From: Patescibacteria group bacterium
Lineage (GTDB): Bacteria > Patescibacteriota > Minisyncoccia > Phycocordibacterales > UBA6065
NCBI GenBank assembly: GCA_038064295.1
Contig: JBBTTH010000021.1
Span: 1-38,094 of the forward strand
DNA length: 38,094 bases
Reading direction: 5' to 3'
The position numbers and the translations under genes were made by a program. The notes below the pieces were generated by a model that saw nothing but the letters and a program-made list of their open reading frames with translations, had not been told where the DNA came from and made no database searches. Shown one piece after another: positions 1 through 34,577 of this stretch; position 1 is the stretch's first letter, and each line of letters begins with the position of its first letter.

Positions 1-800
1 TCGCCACGGGCATGATTCTGGCCACAGGGCCCACCGGTTCGGGAAAATCCACCACTCTCTATACTATTTTGGACATTTTGAATCAGCCCGATGTCAATAT
101 TTCCACAGTTGAAGATCCGGTGGAATATCAAATGCCCCGCGTCAATCAGACCCAAGTGCGTCCTGATATAGGATTTACGTTTGCCACGGGTCTCCGTAGT
201 CTCGTCCGTCAGGATCCCGACATCATTATGGTCGGCGAGATCAGAGATAATGAAACCGCGTCTCTCGCCGTAAATGCCGCTCTCACCGGACATCTCGTTC
301 TCTCAACCCTCCACACAAACAGCGCGGCTGGAGCCATTCCTCGACTCATAGACATGAAGATTGAGCCGTTCCTGCTGGCTTCCACTATATCTGTCGTCAT
401 AGGTCAACGTCTAGTTCGGAGATTGGCCGATGCAAAAGACAGAAAAGCTCTCACCAGAGCGGAACTCACAGCTCTCGGCAAAGTAGTTGATTTGGAACGC
501 ATGCTCTCACTTTTACGCAATGAAAAAGTAATCGGTCCTGCTCACGGATGGGATAAGGTCCAGTTTGGGGCGCCGAAGGCGGGGGAAGGAGACGATGGGT
601 ACAAGGGTCGCATAGGCATGCATGAAGTTTTCAAAATGTCTTCGGCTATAAAAGAATTGGCCATAAAAAACGCTACATCCGAAGTCATAGAAATTCAAGC
701 CAAAAAAGAGGGCATGATGACCATGCTGGAAGACGGCATATTCAAAGCGGCGCAGGGGCTCACCACCATAGAGGAAGTGCTCCGTGTGGTTTCGGAATAA
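1..800 (+). CDS. pilB: Type IV pilus / type II secretion assembly ATPase (GspE/PilB family), C-terminal part. The 5-prime end lies outside the window.
   Basis: The ORF is open from the window edge to the stop at 798-800. It has Walker [10 protein letters not shown], an Asp box [12 protein letters not shown] and a His box [12 protein letters not shown]. pilC and pilin genes follow. Confidence 0.9.
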
Positions 801-831
801 AAGATTTCGGAAAAGTGGTAAAATTATACCA

Positions 832-2055
832 ATGCTTTTCGCCTACAAAGCGGTAAAAAAAGACGGCACGCATTATGAAGGCACCATGGAAGCCGCGGAC
901 AAGTTCGCCGTGTACAGAGAGACGCATACCAGGGGCGATGTGGTTCTGGAAGTAAAAGAAAAGGGGACCAAAGGCGCTCTAAAAAATACTCTGAAAAGCC
1001 TGCTCTCCGTTTCTTTCGGCGGGGCCAAGATGGTCGACCGTATCATGTTTGCCAAAAATTTATCCGCCATGCTCCATGCCGGACTGCCTCTGTCGCGGGC
1101 TCTGTCCGTTCTGGAACGACAGATGGCCGGCGGAACCTGGACTCCCATCCTCAAAAAAATAAGCGACAATCTGTCCAGAGGCGAGAGCCTGTCCGCGTCC
1201 CTGTCGTCTTTTCCCAAAACTTTTTCCCCGCTTTTTGTGTCCATGGTCGGGGCGGGCGAGGAATCGGGAAGCCTGACGGAATCTCTGGCCGTCGTCGGGG
1301 AAGAACTGGAAAAATCATACGAATTTCGCAAGAAAGTGCGCGGCGCCATGATGTATCCGGCCATCATCCTCTGCGTTATGATAGCCATAGCCATTCTCAT
1401 GCTGGTCTATGTCATTCCTCGGCTGACTCTCACATTCAAGGAATTCAATACCGAATTGCCTCTCTCTACCCGCGCCATCATAGAAACCAGCGATTTTTTC
1501 GCCCGATATTATGGATTTATAATTTTCGGAATACTGGCAATCGTTGCCGCCATATACGCTTTTTCCAAAACAATTATGGGTAAACATATTTTGGGTAGAA
1601 TTGCCCTCGGATTTCCAATCATTGGTACCATCGTAGAGGAAATAAATTCAGCCCGCACAGCCCGTACGTTGGCATCTCTATTGTCAGCTGGTGTCCCTGT
1701 GGTGACTGCTGTCAAAATCACGGCGGGTGTCGTTCAAAACATCCATTACCGAGATATGCTTTCAAAAACAGCCGATGAAATTCAGAGAGGCGCTTCTCTG
1801 GAATCGCTGTTTGCGCCGCGGACGGAACTCTATCCGCCGTTTGTCGGAGAAATGATAGGGGTGGGAGAAGAAACGGGCACGCTGTCAAAGACTCTATTGG
1901 AAGTGGCTCTCTTTTATGAAAACGAAGTTGGGCAAAAAACCAAGGACATGTCCACGGTCATAGAGCCTCTCCTCATGGTCCTGATAGGCATAGGGGTCGG
2001 TTTTTTCGCCCTGGCCATGATATCGCCGATTTATTCTCTCACTAATACCATATGA
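832..2055 (+). CDS. pilC: Type IV pilus platform protein (GspF/PilC family).
   Basis: The N-terminus MLFAYKAVKKDGTHYEG is typical of PilC. Two repeated GspF-type domains are present (LSRALSVLERQ.. and TARTLASLLSAGVP..), with hydrophobic TM segments. ATG 832 is preferred over the GTG at 784 given in the track. Confidence 0.9.
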   Translation: MLFAYKAVKKDGTHYEGTMEAADKFAVYRETHTRGDVVLEVKEKGTKGALKNTLKSLLSVSFGGAKMVDRIMFAKNLSAMLHAGLPLSRALSVLERQMAGGTWTPILKKISDNLSRGESLSASLSSFPKTFSPLFVSMVGAGEESGSLTESLAVVGEELEKSYEFRKKVRGAMMYPAIILCVMIAIAILMLVYVIPRLTLTFKEFNTELPLSTRAIIETSDFFARYYGFIIFGILAIVAAIYAFSKTIMGKHILGRIALGFPIIGTIVEEINSARTARTLASLLSAGVPVVTAVKITAGVVQNIHYRDMLSKTADEIQRGASLESLFAPRTELYPPFVGEMIGVGEETGTLSKTLLEVALFYENEVGQKTKDMSTVIEPLLMVLIGIGVGFFALAMISPIYSLTNTI

Positions 2056-2624
2056 TAAAAGCGGAGCAAGAACAGAAAAGAGATGTCCGCGTGGAGACGC
2101 TTGAGGCGCGACGGCGCCGAAACCGAGGACATTTTCTAGCAAGAAAATGTCCGTGCTCCACAAGGATATCTCTTTTCTGTTCTTGCTCTGCTTTTACACT
2201 AATGGAAGTTTTAGTTGTTTTGGCCATAACGACAATTATCGCTACGATATCCGTTGCTTCTTTTGCTGAGTTTTCAAAGAGAGAAGCCCTCGACGCTTCT
2301 GCCACAGCCATAGTGGCAGGATTGCGCGATGCCAGGGCCGAAACTCTGGCTTCTGTCGGTGGATTGCAATACGGTATAGCTGTTTCCCCCGACAAGTTTA
2401 TTTTCTTTCAAGGCACAACTTATGATTCTCTGGCGACCACGAATAAAATATTCAATTTTAGTCCGTATGTTCGCGCTTCATCGAGCATATCTACGGTTGT
2501 CTTTCAGAGACTCACCGGTAATTCTACCGCATCTGGTACAATTGATGTATATCTGATTTCTGATCCGACTGTAAAACGCACGATAAGTATCGGCGGGACC
2601 GGTTTTGTCAACATTCAAAAATAA
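2052..2624 (+). CDS. Type IV pilin-like protein (prepilin-type N-terminal cleavage/methylation motif). The start codon is uncertain.
   Basis: The motif SA|FTLMEVLVVLAITTIIATISVASF is a class III signal plus hydrophobic helix with Glu at +5. ATG 2052 overlaps the pilC stop (ATGA). An alternative in-frame GTG lies at 2091. ATG 2202 would delete the FTL motif. Confidence 0.75.
   Translation: MIKAEQEQKRDVRVETLEARRRRNRGHFLARKCPCSTRISLFCSCSAFTLMEVLVVLAITTIIATISVASFAEFSKREALDASATAIVAGLRDARAETLASVGGLQYGIAVSPDKFIFFQGTTYDSLATTNKIFNFSPYVRASSSISTVVFQRLTGNSTASGTIDVYLISDPTVKRTISIGGTGFVNIQK
2057..2194. repeat. 138-nt palindromic multi-hairpin element between the pilC stop and the pilin class III signal motif.
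   Basis: A 28-bp stem pairs 2057-2084 with 2167-2194, with one G-U pair. Inner helices are gtggag/ctccac (2091-2096/2156-2161), ggcgc/gcgcc (2105-2109/2114-2118) and ggacattttct/agaaaatgtcc (2127-2137/2142-2152). Confidence 0.7.
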
Positions 2625-2626
2625 AA

Positions 2627-3097
2627 ATGATAAAACACAGAGAATCCGGGTCGACTCTCATTGAAGTCGTCGTCGTAGCGGCCATCTTATCTCTCGTTTC
2701 TCTGTCTTTTCTCGGCACATTCGCGGCTTTGTCTAGTTTCCATGAAAAAAACCAGCGCGCTATAAAAGGATTGCTCTTGGCCGAAGAAGGCCTGGAAGCT
2801 GTACGGCTCATTAAAAGTGGTAATTGGAATGATCTGGCGATTATTCCTCCCGGAAGTACCCGCTATCTGATTCTCTCTCCTCTGTCATGGAGTATCACAA
2901 TCTCGCCTGAAATAATTGACGGAATATTTTATAGATCAATACGAGTGTTTAAAGTAATGCGCGACATTAACGACGATATTGTCTCGTCGGGAGGGACGAT
3001 AGATTTGGATACTCTCCGTTTTGAATCGTCCGTGAGCTGGAGCGTGCGCAACGCTACTGCAACCGTTTCCTATGAGGCCTATATGACCGATATTTAA
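2627..3097 (+). CDS. Pseudopilin / minor pilin-like protein.
   Basis: N-terminus MIKHRESG|STLIEVVVVAAILSLVSL: a short basic leader, Gly at -1, Glu at +5 and a hydrophobic helix. Confidence 0.7.
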   Translation: MIKHRESGSTLIEVVVVAAILSLVSLSFLGTFAALSSFHEKNQRAIKGLLLAEEGLEAVRLIKSGNWNDLAIIPPGSTRYLILSPLSWSITISPEIIDGIFYRSIRVFKVMRDINDDIVSSGGTIDLDTLRFESSVSWSVRNATATVSYEAYMTDI

Positions 3098-3107
3098 AAA
3101 ATTCAAT

Positions 3108-3659
3108 ATGTCATTTTTCAAAAAAAGAAATTTAAAAATAAGCGGGAATGACACAGGCGGCGGATATACGCTGGTTGAAATGGTCATTTCAATAGGTCTG
3201 GTTGCGCTACTTCTCATTGTAATCGTTGAGACGGCCATCACAATTGCCCGTTCCCATGAACGCGCCGGAAATTATCTGGAAATAAATTCCGCCGCCGTGG
3301 GGGCGTTTTCCAGATTTTCTAGAGATATCCGCCGGGCGACTTCCATTGATGTCGTAAACAGCATTCTCGGAGCAAGCGACGGAAAAATCGTTCTCAAGAT
3401 GAAAAAAGACGATGGCACGGACGATACTACTGTTTTTTATTTGGCGGAAAACAGGGTAAAAGAAATTTATAACGGCGCGGACCGAGGCGACATCACGCCG
3501 ACCGCTGTAGATATTTCCAATCTGACTTTTCGTCTATTTACTTCTGCTTCGACTACGGCTGTGCGCGTGGAAATGACAGCCTCCCCTCTCGCCAGTTCCA
3601 CAGTTTCGGCAATCAATTTCTACGGCACATATGTTTTGAGAGGATCGTATGTCAAATGA
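3108..3659 (+). CDS. Pseudopilin / minor pilin-like protein.
   Basis: The N-terminus carries GGG|YTLVEMVISIGLVALLLIV after a 17-aa basic leader. Confidence 0.7.
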   Translation: MSFFKKRNLKISGNDTGGGYTLVEMVISIGLVALLLIVIVETAITIARSHERAGNYLEINSAAVGAFSRFSRDIRRATSIDVVNSILGASDGKIVLKMKKDDGTDDTTVFYLAENRVKEIYNGADRGDITPTAVDISNLTFRLFTSASTTAVRVEMTASPLASSTVSAINFYGTYVLRGSYVK

Positions 3660-3691: not shown

Positions 3692-5422
3692 ATGAAAAAC
3701 GATTATAATCAAAAATACAATAGAGGATACGCTCTGGTCACGGCACTGATATTTTTTCTGGTAGCCACGGGAGCGGTCATAGCCGCCATATCGGATGCGG
3801 TTTTCCGTGAAGTGCGCGCGGTGCGCAACGAATCTCTGTCCAAGCAAAGTTACTTTACGTCCGAATCCGCTCTGGAGGACGCGGCTTACCGCATAAAAAC
3901 CGGCAAAATTATAGGCGGTTCGGAATCTCTGACTCTGGCCACTTCCACGGCTCTCGCTACTATAGTATCCGGAGAGAACGGTTCCTGGGAAGTGACATCG
4001 GCCGGCGATGCAGGCAATGCCCGACGCTCGACAAAGCTCGTTTTGAACAAAGGCGACGGTATTTCTTTTGCCTATGCCATAGAAGCCGGTCTTGGTGGTG
4101 TAGATTTAGTCGGTGGGTCGAGCATTATCGGTGATGTGTATACTACCGGGTCCATACGCGGTTGCGGTTCCTGCGCTATTTCAGGAGAGGCCGTATCCGC
4201 GGGCAAATCAACCAGCGTGATTGACCAGGATAATAGCTCTCCCGTCACGCCGACTCAGTCTGTTATTTTTGGAAATAGTTCAGGTACGCAAGATTTGGCT
4301 CAGAGTTTCACAATACCCGGCGCTTTGTCCCTCAAAAAAATACAATTATATATAAAGAAAGTCGGCAATCCGGCCAATGCCACCGTGAAAATTACTGACG
4401 ATGATTATGGCAGTCCTTCTGACAGCATACTGGCGAGCGGCACGCTGTCGTCTTCCTTGGTTTCTGTCTCATATGATTGGGTGGATATAACCCTCACGGC
4501 CAATCCCACGCTGTCTGCCGGCGTGGCATATTGGATTGTCATAGACGGGAGCGGCAATTCATCAAATTATTACATTATGGCCGCCAACACGGTTTATACC
4601 GGCGGTCAGGCAAAAATCGGTAAATACAACAATAATTGGAACAACACGACACCAGACGGGCTGGATGCGTATTTCAAAATATATACAGGCACGAACGGAG
4701 AAGGCATCATCGGCGAGAGCCAATCCAACAAAATTTCGGTTGGTCAAAGCTATTCTCATTCCGCCAGTTACGTCTCCTCGTCGGGCGCTCTCTATTGCCA
4801 GGTCGGGGTGGATAATAATAAGCCTTGTGATACTTCCCGGGCTGACCCGGCAGTGAAAGAATATCCTGTGCCCGATGCGAGAATAAATGAATGGAAAGAT
4901 GAAGCGTCAACAAGCGTTTATAATGGCAATTATTCAGTTGGTTCTGTCGGGGCAACTCTCGGACCAAAGAAAATTGTCGGCAACCTGTCTGTCGGCGGCG
5001 GTGGGACCCTGCGTGTGTCGGGCACCCTCTGGGTTACAGGGACGGTGTCAATTACCGGAGGTTCCTATGTGAGGCCGGACGATAATACAAAGAGTTTTGT
5101 CATAATTTCGGACGGAAGCATAACCCTGTCCGGCGGTTCCCAGGTTCTCGGCAATGTAGACAGCCACATTATGCTCGTTTCCCTCAGTCCTCTGGATCCG
5201 GCCATATCCATCGGCGGCGGGGCGAGTGATACCGTGGTGTTTGCGCCGAACGGCGGGCTCTATATTTCCGGCGGCTCCAATGTCAAAGCCGGGTTGGCCA
5301 GGCATATTTTCCTAGAAGGCGGCGCGAATATCACATATGACCCGAATTTGTCCAGCCTCAATTTTTCTTCGGGATTGCCGGACAGCGAGTTTCAAATTAA
5401 ATCGTGGAAGGAGGTGGAATAA
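3692..5422 (+). CDS. Large pilus-associated protein with a PilX-like N-terminal anchor and a Gly-rich beta-helix-like C-terminal region.
   Basis: The N-terminus RGYALVTALIFFLVATGAVIAAIS has no Glu at +5, as in PilX_N-type proteins. The C-terminus holds repeated GG.S.V.G motifs (VGGGGTLRVSGTLWVTGTVSITGGSYV.., GGASDTVVFAPNGGLYISGGSNV). It is the last gene of the pilin cluster. Confidence 0.6.
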   Translation: MKNDYNQKYNRGYALVTALIFFLVATGAVIAAISDAVFREVRAVRNESLSKQSYFTSESALEDAAYRIKTGKIIGGSESLTLATSTALATIVSGENGSWEVTSAGDAGNARRSTKLVLNKGDGISFAYAIEAGLGGVDLVGGSSIIGDVYTTGSIRGCGSCAISGEAVSAGKSTSVIDQDNSSPVTPTQSVIFGNSSGTQDLAQSFTIPGALSLKKIQLYIKKVGNPANATVKITDDDYGSPSDSILASGTLSSSLVSVSYDWVDITLTANPTLSAGVAYWIVIDGSGNSSNYYIMAANTVYTGGQAKIGKYNNNWNNTTPDGLDAYFKIYTGTNGEGIIGESQSNKISVGQSYSHSASYVSSSGALYCQVGVDNNKPCDTSRADPAVKEYPVPDARINEWKDEASTSVYNGNYSVGSVGATLGPKKIVGNLSVGGGGTLRVSGTLWVTGTVSITGGSYVRPDDNTKSFVIISDGSITLSGGSQVLGNVDSHIMLVSLSPLDPAISIGGGASDTVVFAPNGGLYISGGSNVKAGLARHIFLEGGANITYDPNLSSLNFSSGLPDSEFQIKSWKEVE

Positions 5423-10821: not shown

Positions 10822-10869
10822 GAACAGTCCTCGGGTCGGATTTGTCAAGGACAGACCGTTGACAAATCC
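10822..10869. repeat. Copy 1 of a 48-nt conserved core containing a 10-bp hairpin. Copy 2 is at 34457-34504.
   Basis: The sequence gaacagtcctcgggtcggatttgtcaaggacagaccgttgacaaatcc matches 34457-34504 at 46 of 48 positions. The hairpin is ggatttgtca/tgacaaatcc, and both differences fall in its loop. Confidence 0.7.
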
Positions 10870-25510: not shown

Positions 25511-25611
25511 AAAAAAGCGGCGGATACAAAGTTCTCGTCGCTCGGAGAGGGACCCTTGGAAAGGGCACCCCTTGCTCCTCGCGACTCGAACTTTGTATCC
25601 GCCGCTTTTTT
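25511..25611 (+). terminator. 101-nt extended hairpin flanked by A6/T6 runs (family 1, copy 1). It is terminator-like and bidirectional.
   Basis: The arm aaaaaagcggcggatacaaagttc (25511-25534) pairs perfectly with 25588-25611. Pairing continues through gtcgc/gcgac, ggag/ctcc and the apical ccctt-gga-aaggg. Confidence 0.7.
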
Positions 25612-30734: not shown

Positions 30735-30838
30735 AAAAAAAAGCGGCGGATATAGTTCTGCGCTACTCGGAACGGGACCCGCTCCCAGAGTCTCGCCCCC
30801 GTTCCTGCGCTGCTCGAACTATATCCGCCGCTTTTTTT
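30735..30838 (+). terminator. 104-nt extended hairpin flanked by A8/T7 runs (family 1, copy 2). It is terminator-like.
   Basis: The arm gcggcggatatagttc (30743-30758) pairs with 30816-30831. The inner helix is ggaacggg/cccgttcc. The arms are homologous to the 25511-25611 element, with compensatory changes. Confidence 0.7.
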
Positions 30839-33890: not shown

Positions 33891-34427
33891 ATGAAAACTC
33901 TACGAGAAAAACAAATACACGCCTTTGAAGTCATGAAAAAAGATTTCGGTTATAAAAATATCATGCAAGCGCCGAAAATTTTGAAAGTCGTGGTAGCGGC
34001 TGGCATCGGTTCTTTCAAGGACAAGAAAAAAATAGAGCTCGCGGGTGACCGCATTGCCAAAATAACCGGCCAAAAACCGGTTCTGCGCGTCGCCAAGAAG
34101 TCTATCGCCGGTTTCAAGAGCAGAGAAGGAGATCCTATGGGCTATCAAGTGACTCTGCGCGGCAATACTATGTGGAACTTCCTGGAAAAGTTGGTCAACA
34201 TCGCTCTGCCCCGGACAAAAGACTTTCGCGGACTGCCGTCCGCGTCGGTGGACGGCATGGGCGGGTATTCCATCGGCATTCGAGAGCATTCTATTTTTCC
34301 CGAAACTTCCGACGAAGAATTAAAAGACGTTTTTGGCTTCGGTGTTACGGTTGTCACAAACGTAAAGAAAAAAGAGGAAACAAAAAAATTTCTGGAATTG
34401 CTGGGGTTTCCAATCAAGAAAGCGTAA
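33891..34427 (+). CDS. rplE: 50S ribosomal protein L5.
   Basis: NIMQAPKILKVVV..GIG... and GKVTLRG-type YQVTLRGNTMWNFLEKL match the L5 pattern. Confidence 0.95.
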   Translation: MKTLREKQIHAFEVMKKDFGYKNIMQAPKILKVVVAAGIGSFKDKKKIELAGDRIAKITGQKPVLRVAKKSIAGFKSREGDPMGYQVTLRGNTMWNFLEKLVNIALPRTKDFRGLPSASVDGMGGYSIGIREHSIFPETSDEELKDVFGFGVTVVTNVKKKEETKKFLELLGFPIKKA

Positions 34428-34430
34428 AAA

Positions 34431-34546
34431 CAGAAAAGCGGACCCATCTTTCTCTCGAACAGTCCTCGGGTCGGATTTGTCAAGGACAGACCTATGACAA
34501 ATCCTCCCCTGCGGAGGTTCTCAATAAAGATGGGTCCGCTTTTCTG
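34431..34546 (+). terminator. 116-nt structured element: a perfect 21-bp outer stem enclosing copy 2 of the 48-nt core. It is terminator-like.
   Basis: cagaaaagcggacccatcttt (34431-34451) pairs perfectly with 34526-34546. The interior holds the core at 34457-34504 plus the hairpin cctcc-cctgc-ggagg. Confidence 0.7.
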
Positions 34547-34548
34547 CG

Positions 34549-34577
34549 TTGACACCCCTATAAACCTTTGCTAATAT
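34549..34577 (+). promoter_or_regulatory. Near-consensus promoter TTGACA-17-TAATAT upstream of rpsN.
   Basis: It starts 3 nt after the outer stem and lies about 38 nt upstream of the rpsN ATG. Confidence 0.55.

Follow-up and report, generated by a model that had tools for sequence, protein, structure and literature searches.

A palindromic element lies in frame in the predicted leader of the first pilin gene after pilC

The window is the whole stretch of DNA that we analysed, 38,094 nt from a Patescibacteria genome. The source genome (G000) is 494 kb long and 90% complete, and its two closest species are called G007 and G020. The following features lie at the start of the window.

3..800, + strand: pilB-type traffic ATPase, 3' part, gene runs off the window start (Pfam T2SSE, E = 1.4e-77)
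832..2055, + strand: pilC-type platform protein (Pfam T2SSF, E = 6.4e-57)
2052..2192, + strand: predicted prepilin leader, 47 aa, M1-A47 (ORF; position of the N_methyl motif)
2056..2196, + strand: palindromic structured repeat, copy 'C21', 141 nt, forward orientation (fold; CM R1, 144.8 bits, E = 5e-34)
2056..2088, + strand: outer stem, purine-rich 5' arm, partner 2164-2196 (fold; helix 1 covariation)
2091..2161, + strand: core, three-way junction closed by P2 (fold; inverted in the G020 orthologue)
2105..2118, + strand: hairpin A, 5-bp stem 2105-2109 / 2114-2118, loop GACG (family GAMG), GA..GA flanks (fold)
2127..2152, + strand: hairpin B, 11-bp stem 2127-2137 / 2142-2152, loop AGCA (family AGYA) (fold; covariation)
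2164..2196, + strand: outer stem, pyrimidine-rich 3' arm (fold)
2193..2624, + strand: mature type IV (pseudo)pilin, 143 aa plus stop (Pfam N_methyl; dN/dS)
2627..3097, + strand: next pseudopilin, with the normal short leader MIKHRESG/STLIE (ORF translation, Pfam)

The pilC start at ATG 832 is conserved in G007 and G020, and the earliest possible start is GTG 784. The pilC stop (TGA 2053-2055) overlaps the pilin ATG at 2052. From there the pilin ORF (2052-2624) is open across the palindromic element, which encodes nearly all of residues 2-47 of the predicted leader. This leader, which is basic (about +7), has Ala rather than Gly at its end, and the 3' arm of the element contains the codons for both Ala-1 (GCT 2190-2192) and Phe+1 (TTT 2193-2195). 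The mature pilin has F+1 (F48), E+5 and a hydrophobic N-terminal helix. ORF residues 45-67 match the N_methyl motif of type IV prepilins (PF07963) at 24.7 bits, above the cut-off of 21.2. The source genome also has a prepilin peptidase gene (PF01478, Peptidase_A24, match at G000:C51:4532-4855).

The RNA fold of 2040-2215 has a minimum free energy of -99.7 kcal/mol, compared with -41.0 +/- 4.2 kcal/mol for shuffled sequences (z = -14.0), and 0/200 shuffles fold as stably. The outer stem pairs 2056-2088 with 2164-2196. Inside it, P2 pairs 2091-2096 with 2156-2161 and is extended by 2098-2100 / 2153-2155. An earlier note on this DNA had described the ATGA overlap at 2052-2055, a pilin frame without stops through the element, and the MIKHRESG/STLIE start of the next pseudopilin, all of which hold. 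It was also right to place a long palindromic stem here and to call the leader unusually long with Ala at -1, but the stem has 33 bp, two of them G-U, rather than 28 with one, and the leader has 47 rather than about 50 residues.

The element is present in independent data. A 435-nt metagenome contig from an independent run of another study (X9) covers 1990-2400 with 0 differences and 0 gaps. Both element junctions are present in three further runs, and the stretch is present in eleven runs. Short-read graph contigs end within the repeat core in three runs, and such breaks could be taken as a sign that the palindrome is an artefact of a single assembly. That reading is ruled out by the X9 contig and by the presence of the element at the same site in two other species. 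The element is therefore neither an assembly artefact nor unique to this assembly.

The element was probably inserted into a short prepilin leader

Fourteen orthologous pilC-pilin junctions lack the element, and their leaders are 6-11 aa long and all end in Gly. Relative to these junctions the element is an insertion of 138-141 nt, as the earlier note had proposed when it suggested that a short leader was invaded by a palindromic element. G000 shares the element and its site with G007 and G020 (pilC 81% identical). The leader is 47 aa with a terminal Ala in G000 and G020 and 46 aa in G007. In all 17 species the pilin start codon is at the ancestral position by the pilC stop, and the pilin frame is open in all three element-bearing species, although the element of G007 differs in length by 3 nt and that of G020 has an inverted core. 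We infer that the ancestral leader was of the form 'MIK..'. A pre-insertion site derived by simple TA duplication was rejected because it gives an in-frame stop; our guess is that the target was a K-G-F near-palindrome (AAA GGC TTT).

The mature pilin has a dN/dS of 0.12-0.17 against G007 and G020 (0.099/0.826, 0.184/1.066 and 0.152/1.048). Because the mature part is under purifying selection, the gene most likely encodes a prepilin whose leader is 46-47 aa long and has Ala as its last residue. Between GTG 2091 and Phe+1 there is no in-frame ATG, GTG or TTG, and an internal start at GTG 2091, which the earlier note had raised as an alternative, would still leave a 34-aa leader. The processing, stability or attenuation signal that the note paired with such a start may exist as a further role of the element.

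Between G000 and G007 the inner ~97 nt of the element are 97-100% identical, compared with about 75% identity in flanking coding DNA and pS = 0.50 at synonymous sites beside the element. The arms are about 97% identical to those of G020, with two compensatory pairs. Stem changes between species preserve pairing and alter both arm peptides (K to E, F to S), which agrees with the earlier note in that the structure, not the peptide, is conserved. Conservation of the inner element exceeds what would be expected of tolerated junk, which hints at a function or at a double constraint. Since G020 has the core in the opposite orientation, the pilin site does not require an RNA motif that depends on orientation.

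No promoter-like site was predicted near the element. A scan of 2056-2210 with an intrinsic terminator consensus likewise found none; the hairpin is followed by just TTTT, within the stem. Other copies, many of which have A-runs and T-runs, may have a terminator-like effect. At the pilin site, a stem of about -100 kcal/mol just 3' of the start codon could block translation.

A second in-frame copy lies in murB, in the linker between the FAD_binding_4 and MurB_C domains. This insert measures 150 nt in G000, 123 nt in G020 and 99 nt in G017, and G007 has a 57-nt remnant. In fourteen other species the MurB linker is just 15-36 nt.

The element belongs to a covarying repeat family of Patescibacteria

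The source genome contains at least 16-19 copies of the element (16 by nhmmer, about 19 on the forward strand by CM), which answers whether the palindrome recurs genome-wide. Counting the source genome, CM matches occur in 37/61 genomes searched, with up to 41 matches per genome when both strands are counted; 19 of the 21 other genomes of the genus have them. By CM the family reaches across the Patescibacteria, with members in Kaiser-, Nomura- and Adlerbacteria and in Saccharibacteria. In GTDB species genomes, a pattern scan gave matches almost exclusively in Patescibacteria. When the scan loci were checked by CM, most of the 70 loci in CPR or unnamed MAGs were confirmed, compared with 0/7 titled as other bacteria.

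Family members are about 120-145 nt long and combine a variable long outer stem with a conserved three-way junction. The sequence of the outer stem differs from copy to copy, and pairing and core alone are kept. All 40 modelled pairs show double changes. The share of paired cells is 97.0%, whereas shuffles reach 66% and slid controls 46-57%, and the covariation score of 0.85 (versus 0.245) was attained by 0/500 shuffles. The core is conserved phylum-wide; its loops, GAMG and AGYA, are near-invariant and, like its tandem G.A motifs, fit the forward strand only. In the forward orientation G-U pairs outnumber A-C pairs (54 vs 25), and the reverse complement usually folds less stably than the forward strand. 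A hammerhead reading of the CUGA...GAA junction was rejected: the G8/A9 and A14 positions do not fit, and Rfam gives no match.

The sites of the copies are convergent (26), co-directional (36) or, rarely, divergent (6), and most lie no more than 20 nt from an ORF end. At co-directional sites the orientation is mixed (15 sense vs 21 antisense). The core flips between orthologous sites, and at other orthologous sites the arms are better conserved than the flanks. One orthologous site carries three different subfamilies in three species. The frame is open in 51/81 copies on the forward strand and 74/81 on the reverse strand, compared with 27% of shuffles; the reverse strand of the window copy is likewise open across the element.

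The Rfam 15 covariance models gave no match overlapping the window copy at E <= 1. Across eight further copy loci the sole overlap was a chance hit to MIR869, which scored 20.9 bits where the gathering score is 330. Searches of the literature on repeats in CPR, Patescibacteria and Saccharibacteria found no description of the family. Taken as a family, these elements are probably selfish, self-maintaining palindromic repeats situated mostly at gene 3' ends.

No partner among the transposase families searched, and a weak link to reverse transcriptase

Patterns of presence and absence suggest that the family is mobile. At the pilB-pilC site, the difference between filled and empty versions is larger than the palindrome itself. 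No consensus emerges from the outermost paired bases of 66 copies, and thus there are no conserved terminal inverted repeats of the kind that define MITEs; nor does a recurrent direct repeat, as left by target-site duplication in MITEs, lie beside the maximal palindromes.

Four transposase families were searched in five copy-rich genomes (G000, which is 90% complete, G007, G019, G020 and G047). DDE_Tnp_1 and the TnpB Zn-ribbon were found in 0/5, and DDE and TnpB partners were dropped. An rve partner was rejected, with a match above cut-off in G007 alone. A REP/RAYT or IS200 partner was rejected as well: Y1_Tnp (PF01797) was found in 0/5, and its presence does not track copy number.

Reverse transcriptase genes (RVT_1) are present in 5/5 of the copy-rich genomes. 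Among 61 relatives, they occur in 12/19 genomes with at least 5 element matches and in 4/24 with none. We did not adopt this link because it is weak and the genomes, being kin, are not independent. As a partner, reverse transcriptase was rejected: the near-complete RT-free genomes G004, G030 and G041 have 9-18 matches, and no element copy adjoins an RT gene. The RTs are probably of the DGR type, judging from their size (about 335-341 aa), the small adjoining ORF (about 112-118 aa) and scores below every NCBIfam cut-off.

A repeat copy lodged in a removable leader best explains the site

We favour the reading, at a probability of about 0.75, that 2056-2196 is a copy of a many-copy Patescibacteria palindromic repeat that lodged in frame in the predicted removable leader of a pilin, in the manner of Rickettsia palindromic elements (RPE). 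The ancestor that G000, G007 and G020 have in common would have received the copy between the first pilin codons and the cleavage site. From then on the encoded prepilin would have had a basic leader of 46-47 aa with Ala at its end, and the frame would have stayed open, with few stops, because the arms are purine-rich and pyrimidine-rich. Translation would start at ATG 2052, which the pilC stop overlaps. Since the 33-bp stem begins 4 nt after this ATG, initiation is likely coupled to pilC and would most likely depend on ribosomes finishing it. The leader would remain cytoplasmic and be removed by the genome's own prepilin peptidase, and we infer that the insertion was tolerated for this reason; the pilin site would thus be permissive, like the MurB linker. 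Within the element, compensatory changes would maintain pairing and recombination between the arms would flip the core.

It is possible, though we doubt it, that this copy has been co-opted by the pil operon as an RNA device acting in cis, kept because it sets the pilin:pilC ratio. Such a device could act through translation coupling, cleavage by a double-strand RNase or protection of the upstream mRNA, and it is compatible with an origin by insertion. The near-identity of the inner ~97 nt between G000 and G007 beside sites at pS = 0.50, the about 97% identical arms of G020 with their two compensatory pairs, and a stem that begins 4 nt after the ATG overlapping the pilC stop would all suit this role. 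So would the placement of family copies at gene ends (26 convergent, 36 co-directional and 6 divergent) and the better conservation of arms than flanks elsewhere. However, fourteen related species have the junction without the element, the core is inverted in G020, and there is no terminator-like tail; the need to satisfy both coding and pairing could also account for the conservation. A version of this idea that we consider speculative and rather improbable makes the whole family a functional RNA or ssDNA module, whose junction, carrying the GAMG and AGYA loops and the tandem G.A pairs, docks a Patescibacteria protein and which spreads without a transposase and repairs itself, with the pilin copy as an obligatory translational coupler of PilC and pilin. 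An unlikely reading is that the elements are small structured RNA genes, or an ssDNA form with a dedicated protein, whose forward strand is the functional one. The phylum-wide core, the loops (GAMG, AGYA) and the tandem G.A motifs that suit the forward strand only, the G-U excess (54 vs 25), the usually stabler forward fold and the strong covariation all point that way. Palindrome-correcting template switching (quasipalindrome mutagenesis) in DNA can also yield 'compensatory' changes, though. The mixed orientation (15 sense, 21 antisense), cores that flip between orthologous sites, copies within ORFs, three subfamilies at one site in three species, and the lack of an Rfam match or of a predicted promoter at the window copy also argue against an RNA gene.

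We consider it very unlikely that the pilin gene is dead or starts past the element (for example at Met+4, ATG 2202), which would make the element intergenic and its open frame a matter of chance. The family is intrinsically stop-poor, with the reverse strand open too, and a 47-aa leader with Ala at -1 is outside the known range. But the mature part has a dN/dS of 0.12-0.17 at a dS of about 0.8-1.1, and neither a 3-nt indel nor an inversion has broken the frame in the three species. In addition, the start codon position is ancestral in 17/17 species, and a product starting at Met+4 would be without the leader and the Phe+1 that the N_methyl motif needs.

If this reading is true, a leader about double the length of any reported occurs naturally in a bacterial prepilin of three species, with Ala in place of the 'invariant' Gly. 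The pilin site would then be a test case for the tolerance of prepilin peptidase and of membrane insertion. Genomes of ~0.5 Mb retain dozens of 140-nt palindromes that are better conserved than synonymous sites, and these palindromes can occupy essential genes (murB), flip their cores and swap modules without a recognisable transposase. The family spans Parcubacteria-type lineages and Saccharibacteria with no description in Rfam or the searched literature, and its conserved three-way junction offers a handle for finding a partner protein and the mode of spread.

Comparison with known systems

The pilin resembles type IV prepilins in its N_methyl motif, Phe+1, Glu+5 and hydrophobic helix, in the pilB and pilC genes upstream and in the peptidase gene of the genome. 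Bacterial class III leaders are reported to be 6-26 aa long and invariably to have Gly at the end (PMC4471445); the predicted leader departs from this at 47 aa and with a terminal Ala.

Among repeats, REP and REPIN sequences are likewise extragenic palindromes at gene ends that spread without a gene of their own, and REP/REPIN can stabilise upstream mRNA. REP sequences differ in being 20-40 nt long with a conserved GTAG head and in their dependence on a Y1 (RAYT) transposase; searches of G000, G007, G019, G020 and G047 gave no such gene. Correia elements of Neisseria (CREE) form long RNA hairpins cleavable by RNase III and can invert (PMC10969869). The Patescibacteria elements share with CREE and other bacterial MITEs a small, non-coding, multi-copy nature, and their core is inverted between orthologous sites. 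MITEs come with a related IS transposase, with target-site duplications and with terminal inverted repeats of conserved sequence; none of the three was found here.

The closest analogues are ERIC and the Rickettsia palindromic elements. ERIC (IRU) sequences are imperfect palindromes of ~127 bp that lie in transcribed intergenic regions in either orientation, with no transposase known; they are occasionally intragenic and can alter mRNA fate (PMC10969869). The elements described here are palindromes of similar size, also with no known transposase and with a copy number that varies highly between related genomes. ERIC has a whole-length consensus, whereas here the outer stem varies in sequence and pairing and core are kept. 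RPE (RPE-1 to RPE-10) are palindromic, occur in many copies and also lie in frame inside functional genes (PMC10969869). The Patescibacteria family seems to work like RPE rather than to belong with them because the host phylum differs, a distinction drawn from published descriptions. Its copies lie mostly between genes, at gene 3' ends, the loops of its conserved three-way junction are invariant, and it is phylum-wide, whereas RPE occur within one genus. In both cases, palindromes of about 100-150 bp populate a reduced genome with intergenic and in-frame copies, and here, as in RPE, a multi-copy palindrome lies in frame in functional genes, in the pilin leader and in the MurB linker.

A palindromic element of a repeat family separates pilC from the mature pilin

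The pilC-type gene (Pfam T2SSF) ends at a TGA stop at 2053-2055 that is overlapped by ATG 2052, the start of a 190-codon ORF. Residues 45-67 of this ORF form the type IV pilin N-methylation motif (PF07963), and between the ORF start and the motif lies a near-perfect palindrome. Its RNA fold has the following parts.

Features of the pilin-site element (window coordinates)
2056-2088 / 2164-2196: outer stem, 33 bp with two G-U pairs
2091-2096 / 2156-2161: P2 helix, with a 3-bp extension
2105-2118: hairpin A, loop GACG
2127-2152: hairpin B, loop AGCA

The sequence, the ORF and the fold thus confirm the earlier note, which placed a multi-hairpin palindrome directly after the pilC stop. Its outer stem is present, but is longer than the 28 bp with one G-U pair described there, and the unusually long leader spans 47 aa rather than about 50. 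The fold of 2040-2215 reached -99.7 kcal/mol, far below dinucleotide shuffles (-41.0 +/- 4.2; z = -14), and 0/200 shuffles reached this stability. An assembly artefact is ruled out, since 11 public groundwater runs contain the stretch and a contig from an independent study covers 1990-2400 with zero differences.

The pilin-site element is an insertion that is probably read through in frame

We compared pilC-pilin junctions in 17 species of the genus. The element is absent in 14 of them (pilC 60-68% identical), where the pilin ATG overlaps the pilC stop or directly adjoins it, and a leader of 6-11 aa ends in Gly (for example MRNVTDKG/FSVIEL and MKKSQG/FTAVEL, slash before residue +1). In G007 and G020, the closest species (pilC 81% identical), the element occupies precisely the same position. 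In all three carriers the start codon lies at the pilC stop, the element leaves the frame open, residue -1 is Ala with its codon GCT within the 3' arm, and the Phe+1 codon TTT is part of the stem. G007 differs by 3 nt in length, which keeps the frame and gives a 46-aa leader. In G020 the whole core is inverted, again in frame, with the arms in the same orientation and hairpins A and B reverse-complemented. These data show that the element is an inserted family copy common to three species, and they support the earlier proposal that a short leader was invaded by a palindrome.

The mature pilin is under purifying selection (dN/dS of 0.099/0.826, 0.184/1.066 and 0.152/1.048), indicating that the gene has continued to be used with the element in place. 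Because no in-frame ATG, GTG or TTG occurs between GTG 2091 and Phe+1, the leader of a functional prepilin cannot be shorter than 34 aa. Neither a promoter-like nor a terminator-like site was predicted around the element, suggesting that it is transcribed with pilC.

Two neighbouring genes had no Pfam family at E <= 0.01: the third pseudopilin (3108-3659), with an 18-19-aa leader (..GNDTGG/YTLVEM), and a fourth gene (3692-5422, 576 aa), with a pilin-like N-terminus lacking Glu+5.

The palindrome belongs to a family found almost exclusively in Patescibacteria

A search of the window's own genome, G000 (494 kb, 56 contigs, 90% complete), for further copies yielded 16 with BLAST and nhmmer and about 19 on the forward strand with R1, the covariance model of the family. 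All copies have one architecture. An outer stem of 20-33 bp, variable in sequence but always purine-rich in its 5' arm, leads through an internal loop interpretable as tandem G.A pairs (CGAG facing CGAG) and a P2 helix of 6-7 bp to a three-way junction bearing hairpin A (loop GAMG, flanked GA..GA) and hairpin B (11 bp, loop AGYA). Across 81 copies from five genomes, standard pairs filled 97.0% of pair cells (shuffles 66%, slid controls 46-57%), and both partners had changed in 40/40 pairs. The covariation score was 0.85 versus 0.245 and was reached in 0/500 shuffles.

Within the genus 19/21 genomes carry the family, which also extends to many further families of the order; matches per genome range from 0 to about 40. 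When one genome per GTDB species was scanned with a degenerate hairpin A + B pattern, matches were almost exclusively in Patescibacteria, with record titles naming Kaiser-, Nomura-, Adler-, Niyogi-, Zambryski- and Taylorbacteria, Moraniibacteriota, Paceibacterota and many Saccharibacteria. The covariance model upheld most of these and none of the seven matches whose titles named other bacteria (two Neisseria, Vogesella, Roseibium, Treponema, a Clostridia MAG and a proteobacterial MAG). Many host-associated Saccharibacteria (TM7) MAGs carry loci that match the model of this three-way-junction element, with E down to 1e-15 (loci L218, L230, L236, L245 and others). Since the lineage has cultivated members, the family could be studied experimentally. 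No matching family was found in Rfam 15, and no description was found in the literature searched.

Copies lie at gene ends, in most cases 0-20 nt from a stop codon. At 68 scored sites the genes were convergent in 26, co-directional in 36 and divergent in 6, and orientation relative to flanking genes was mixed (15 sense, 21 antisense). The family is stop-poor, with the forward frame open in 51/81 copies and the reverse in 74/81 (shuffles 27%). Another in-frame copy occurs in murB, where it separates the FAD_binding_4 and MurB_C domains:

L155:385-551 = G000:C41:6939-7105, minus-strand gene: murB copy with an enlarged hairpin A, adding about 49 aa

The murB insert measures 150 nt in G000, 123 nt in G020 and 99 nt in G017; G007 has a 57-nt arm remnant, and in 14 other species the linker spans just 15-36 nt. 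In G019 (contig C11; L163 / L180) the insert is 149 nt, not a multiple of 3, and the MurB halves are out of frame with each other and separated by two TAA stops, which could be a split or broken gene or a sequencing error.

At the pilB-pilC junction, G007 and G020 have a copy antisense to the operon (L063:684-832; L062:543-691) with about 45 additional nt beside the palindrome, and the G000 counterpart (window 798-832) is empty. In G016 and G004 (L044:1480-1670; L051:1480-1670) a copy abuts an apparent tRNA-gene 3' end, with reverse-complement T-arm sequence immediately after the stem.

G000 is heavily populated by palindromes, with at least two further long hairpin-repeat families flanked by A-runs or T-runs. 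One has core GGATTTGTCAAGG..., the other arms beginning AAAAAAGCGGCGGATA, and both share CGAG-type internal loops with the pilin-site family.

Further hairpin repeats
Window: 25511-25611, 30736-30838, 34424-34553, 10822-10869
Elsewhere in G000: C36:10602-10749, C28:12170-12317, C37:2459-2606

Pairing is maintained while the arm peptides change

One stem pair of G000 differs on both sides in G007 (CAGAAAAG/CTTTTCTG to CAGGAAAG/CTTTCCTG), so that one arm peptide has Glu in place of Lys and the other Ser in place of Phe. Another compensated pair distinguishes G000 from G020. These changes show that pairing is maintained and support the earlier view that selection acts on the nucleic acid rather than the peptide. 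Read forward, the copies have 54 G-U pairs against 25 A-C mismatches, and the tandem G.A motifs make sense on the forward strand only; this sequence pattern moderately favours selection at the level of the single strand.

Elsewhere, orthologous sites in G000, G007 and G020 include cases of arms kept through compensatory changes, of a symmetric 9-nt deletion in both arms and of an inner module replaced by that of a different subfamily. Arm complementarity may be kept by selection or by palindrome-correcting template switching, and the core would flip through recombination between the arms. A second core inversion with conserved arms (G000:C41:7763-7911 versus L118:801-947) suggests that such inversion is recurrent. 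One intergenic site between divergent genes holds three subfamilies with unrelated stems in three species (G000:C48:7637-7785, L105:801-948, L111:801-949), reflecting either repeated insertion at one spot or replacement of the whole element.

Simple "tolerated junk" leaves one main point unexplained, the excess conservation of the inner ~97 nt (about 2076-2175). This core is 97-100% identical between G000 and G007, against ~75% in the surrounding coding DNA (synonymous pS = 0.50). Recent conversion from a paralogue is unlikely, because the best other G000 copy is 87% identical to the core and none is identical. This excess may arise because the stretch must both encode protein and pair, or because the hairpin has a genuine function in the operon.

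Ribosomes ending at the pilC UGA would already have opened the first turns of the stem and could re-initiate at the overlapping AUG. For a free 30S subunit the first pilin codons would be buried in the 33-bp helix, so pilin synthesis would depend on pilC translation. Mutagenesis of Pseudomonas PilA by Strom and Lory in 1991 reportedly found Ala at -1 to be the only substitution still permitting some cleavage. The genome has a prepilin peptidase gene. The basic leader (net charge about +7) would remain cytoplasmic, as class III leaders do (PMC4471445), and upon its removal the extra 40 residues would never reach the filament.

Comparison with known mobile and repetitive elements

We found no conserved termini among family copies and no flanking target-site duplications. 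In the five copy-rich genomes, Y1/RAYT, DDE_Tnp_1 and TnpB genes were absent, and an rve domain exceeded its cut-off in G007 only. Lacking these termini, duplications and a consistent transposase of the four types searched, the family falls outside the MITE and REP/RAYT definitions.

Reverse transcriptases (RTs) are present in copy-rich genomes and loosely, but not consistently, associated with copy number (12/19 relatives at high copy number versus 4/24). The 0.49-Mb genome itself has three RT genes (L156:658-1659, minus; L157:587-1609, plus; G000:C54:36-527), two of them complete (334-341 aa) and each beside a small ORF of about 112-118 aa. They score below every NCBIfam cut-off and are probably of the diversity-generating retroelement type. 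We rejected an RT as spreading partner on this ground, and because many copies occur in RT-free near-complete genomes and no copy adjoins an RT gene.

The family is apparently an unpublished variant of known palindromic repeats able to live inside genes; unusual in the pilin case is a predicted prepilin leader of record length with Ala at -1. It resembles the palindromic elements of Rickettsia, which likewise occur in frame within genes of a reduced genome (PMC10969869). Functionally it is also like ERIC, a transcribed intergenic palindrome that occurs in both orientations and for which no transposase is known (PMC10969869). Correia elements can invert (PMC10969869), and the core of the Patescibacteria family likewise flips.
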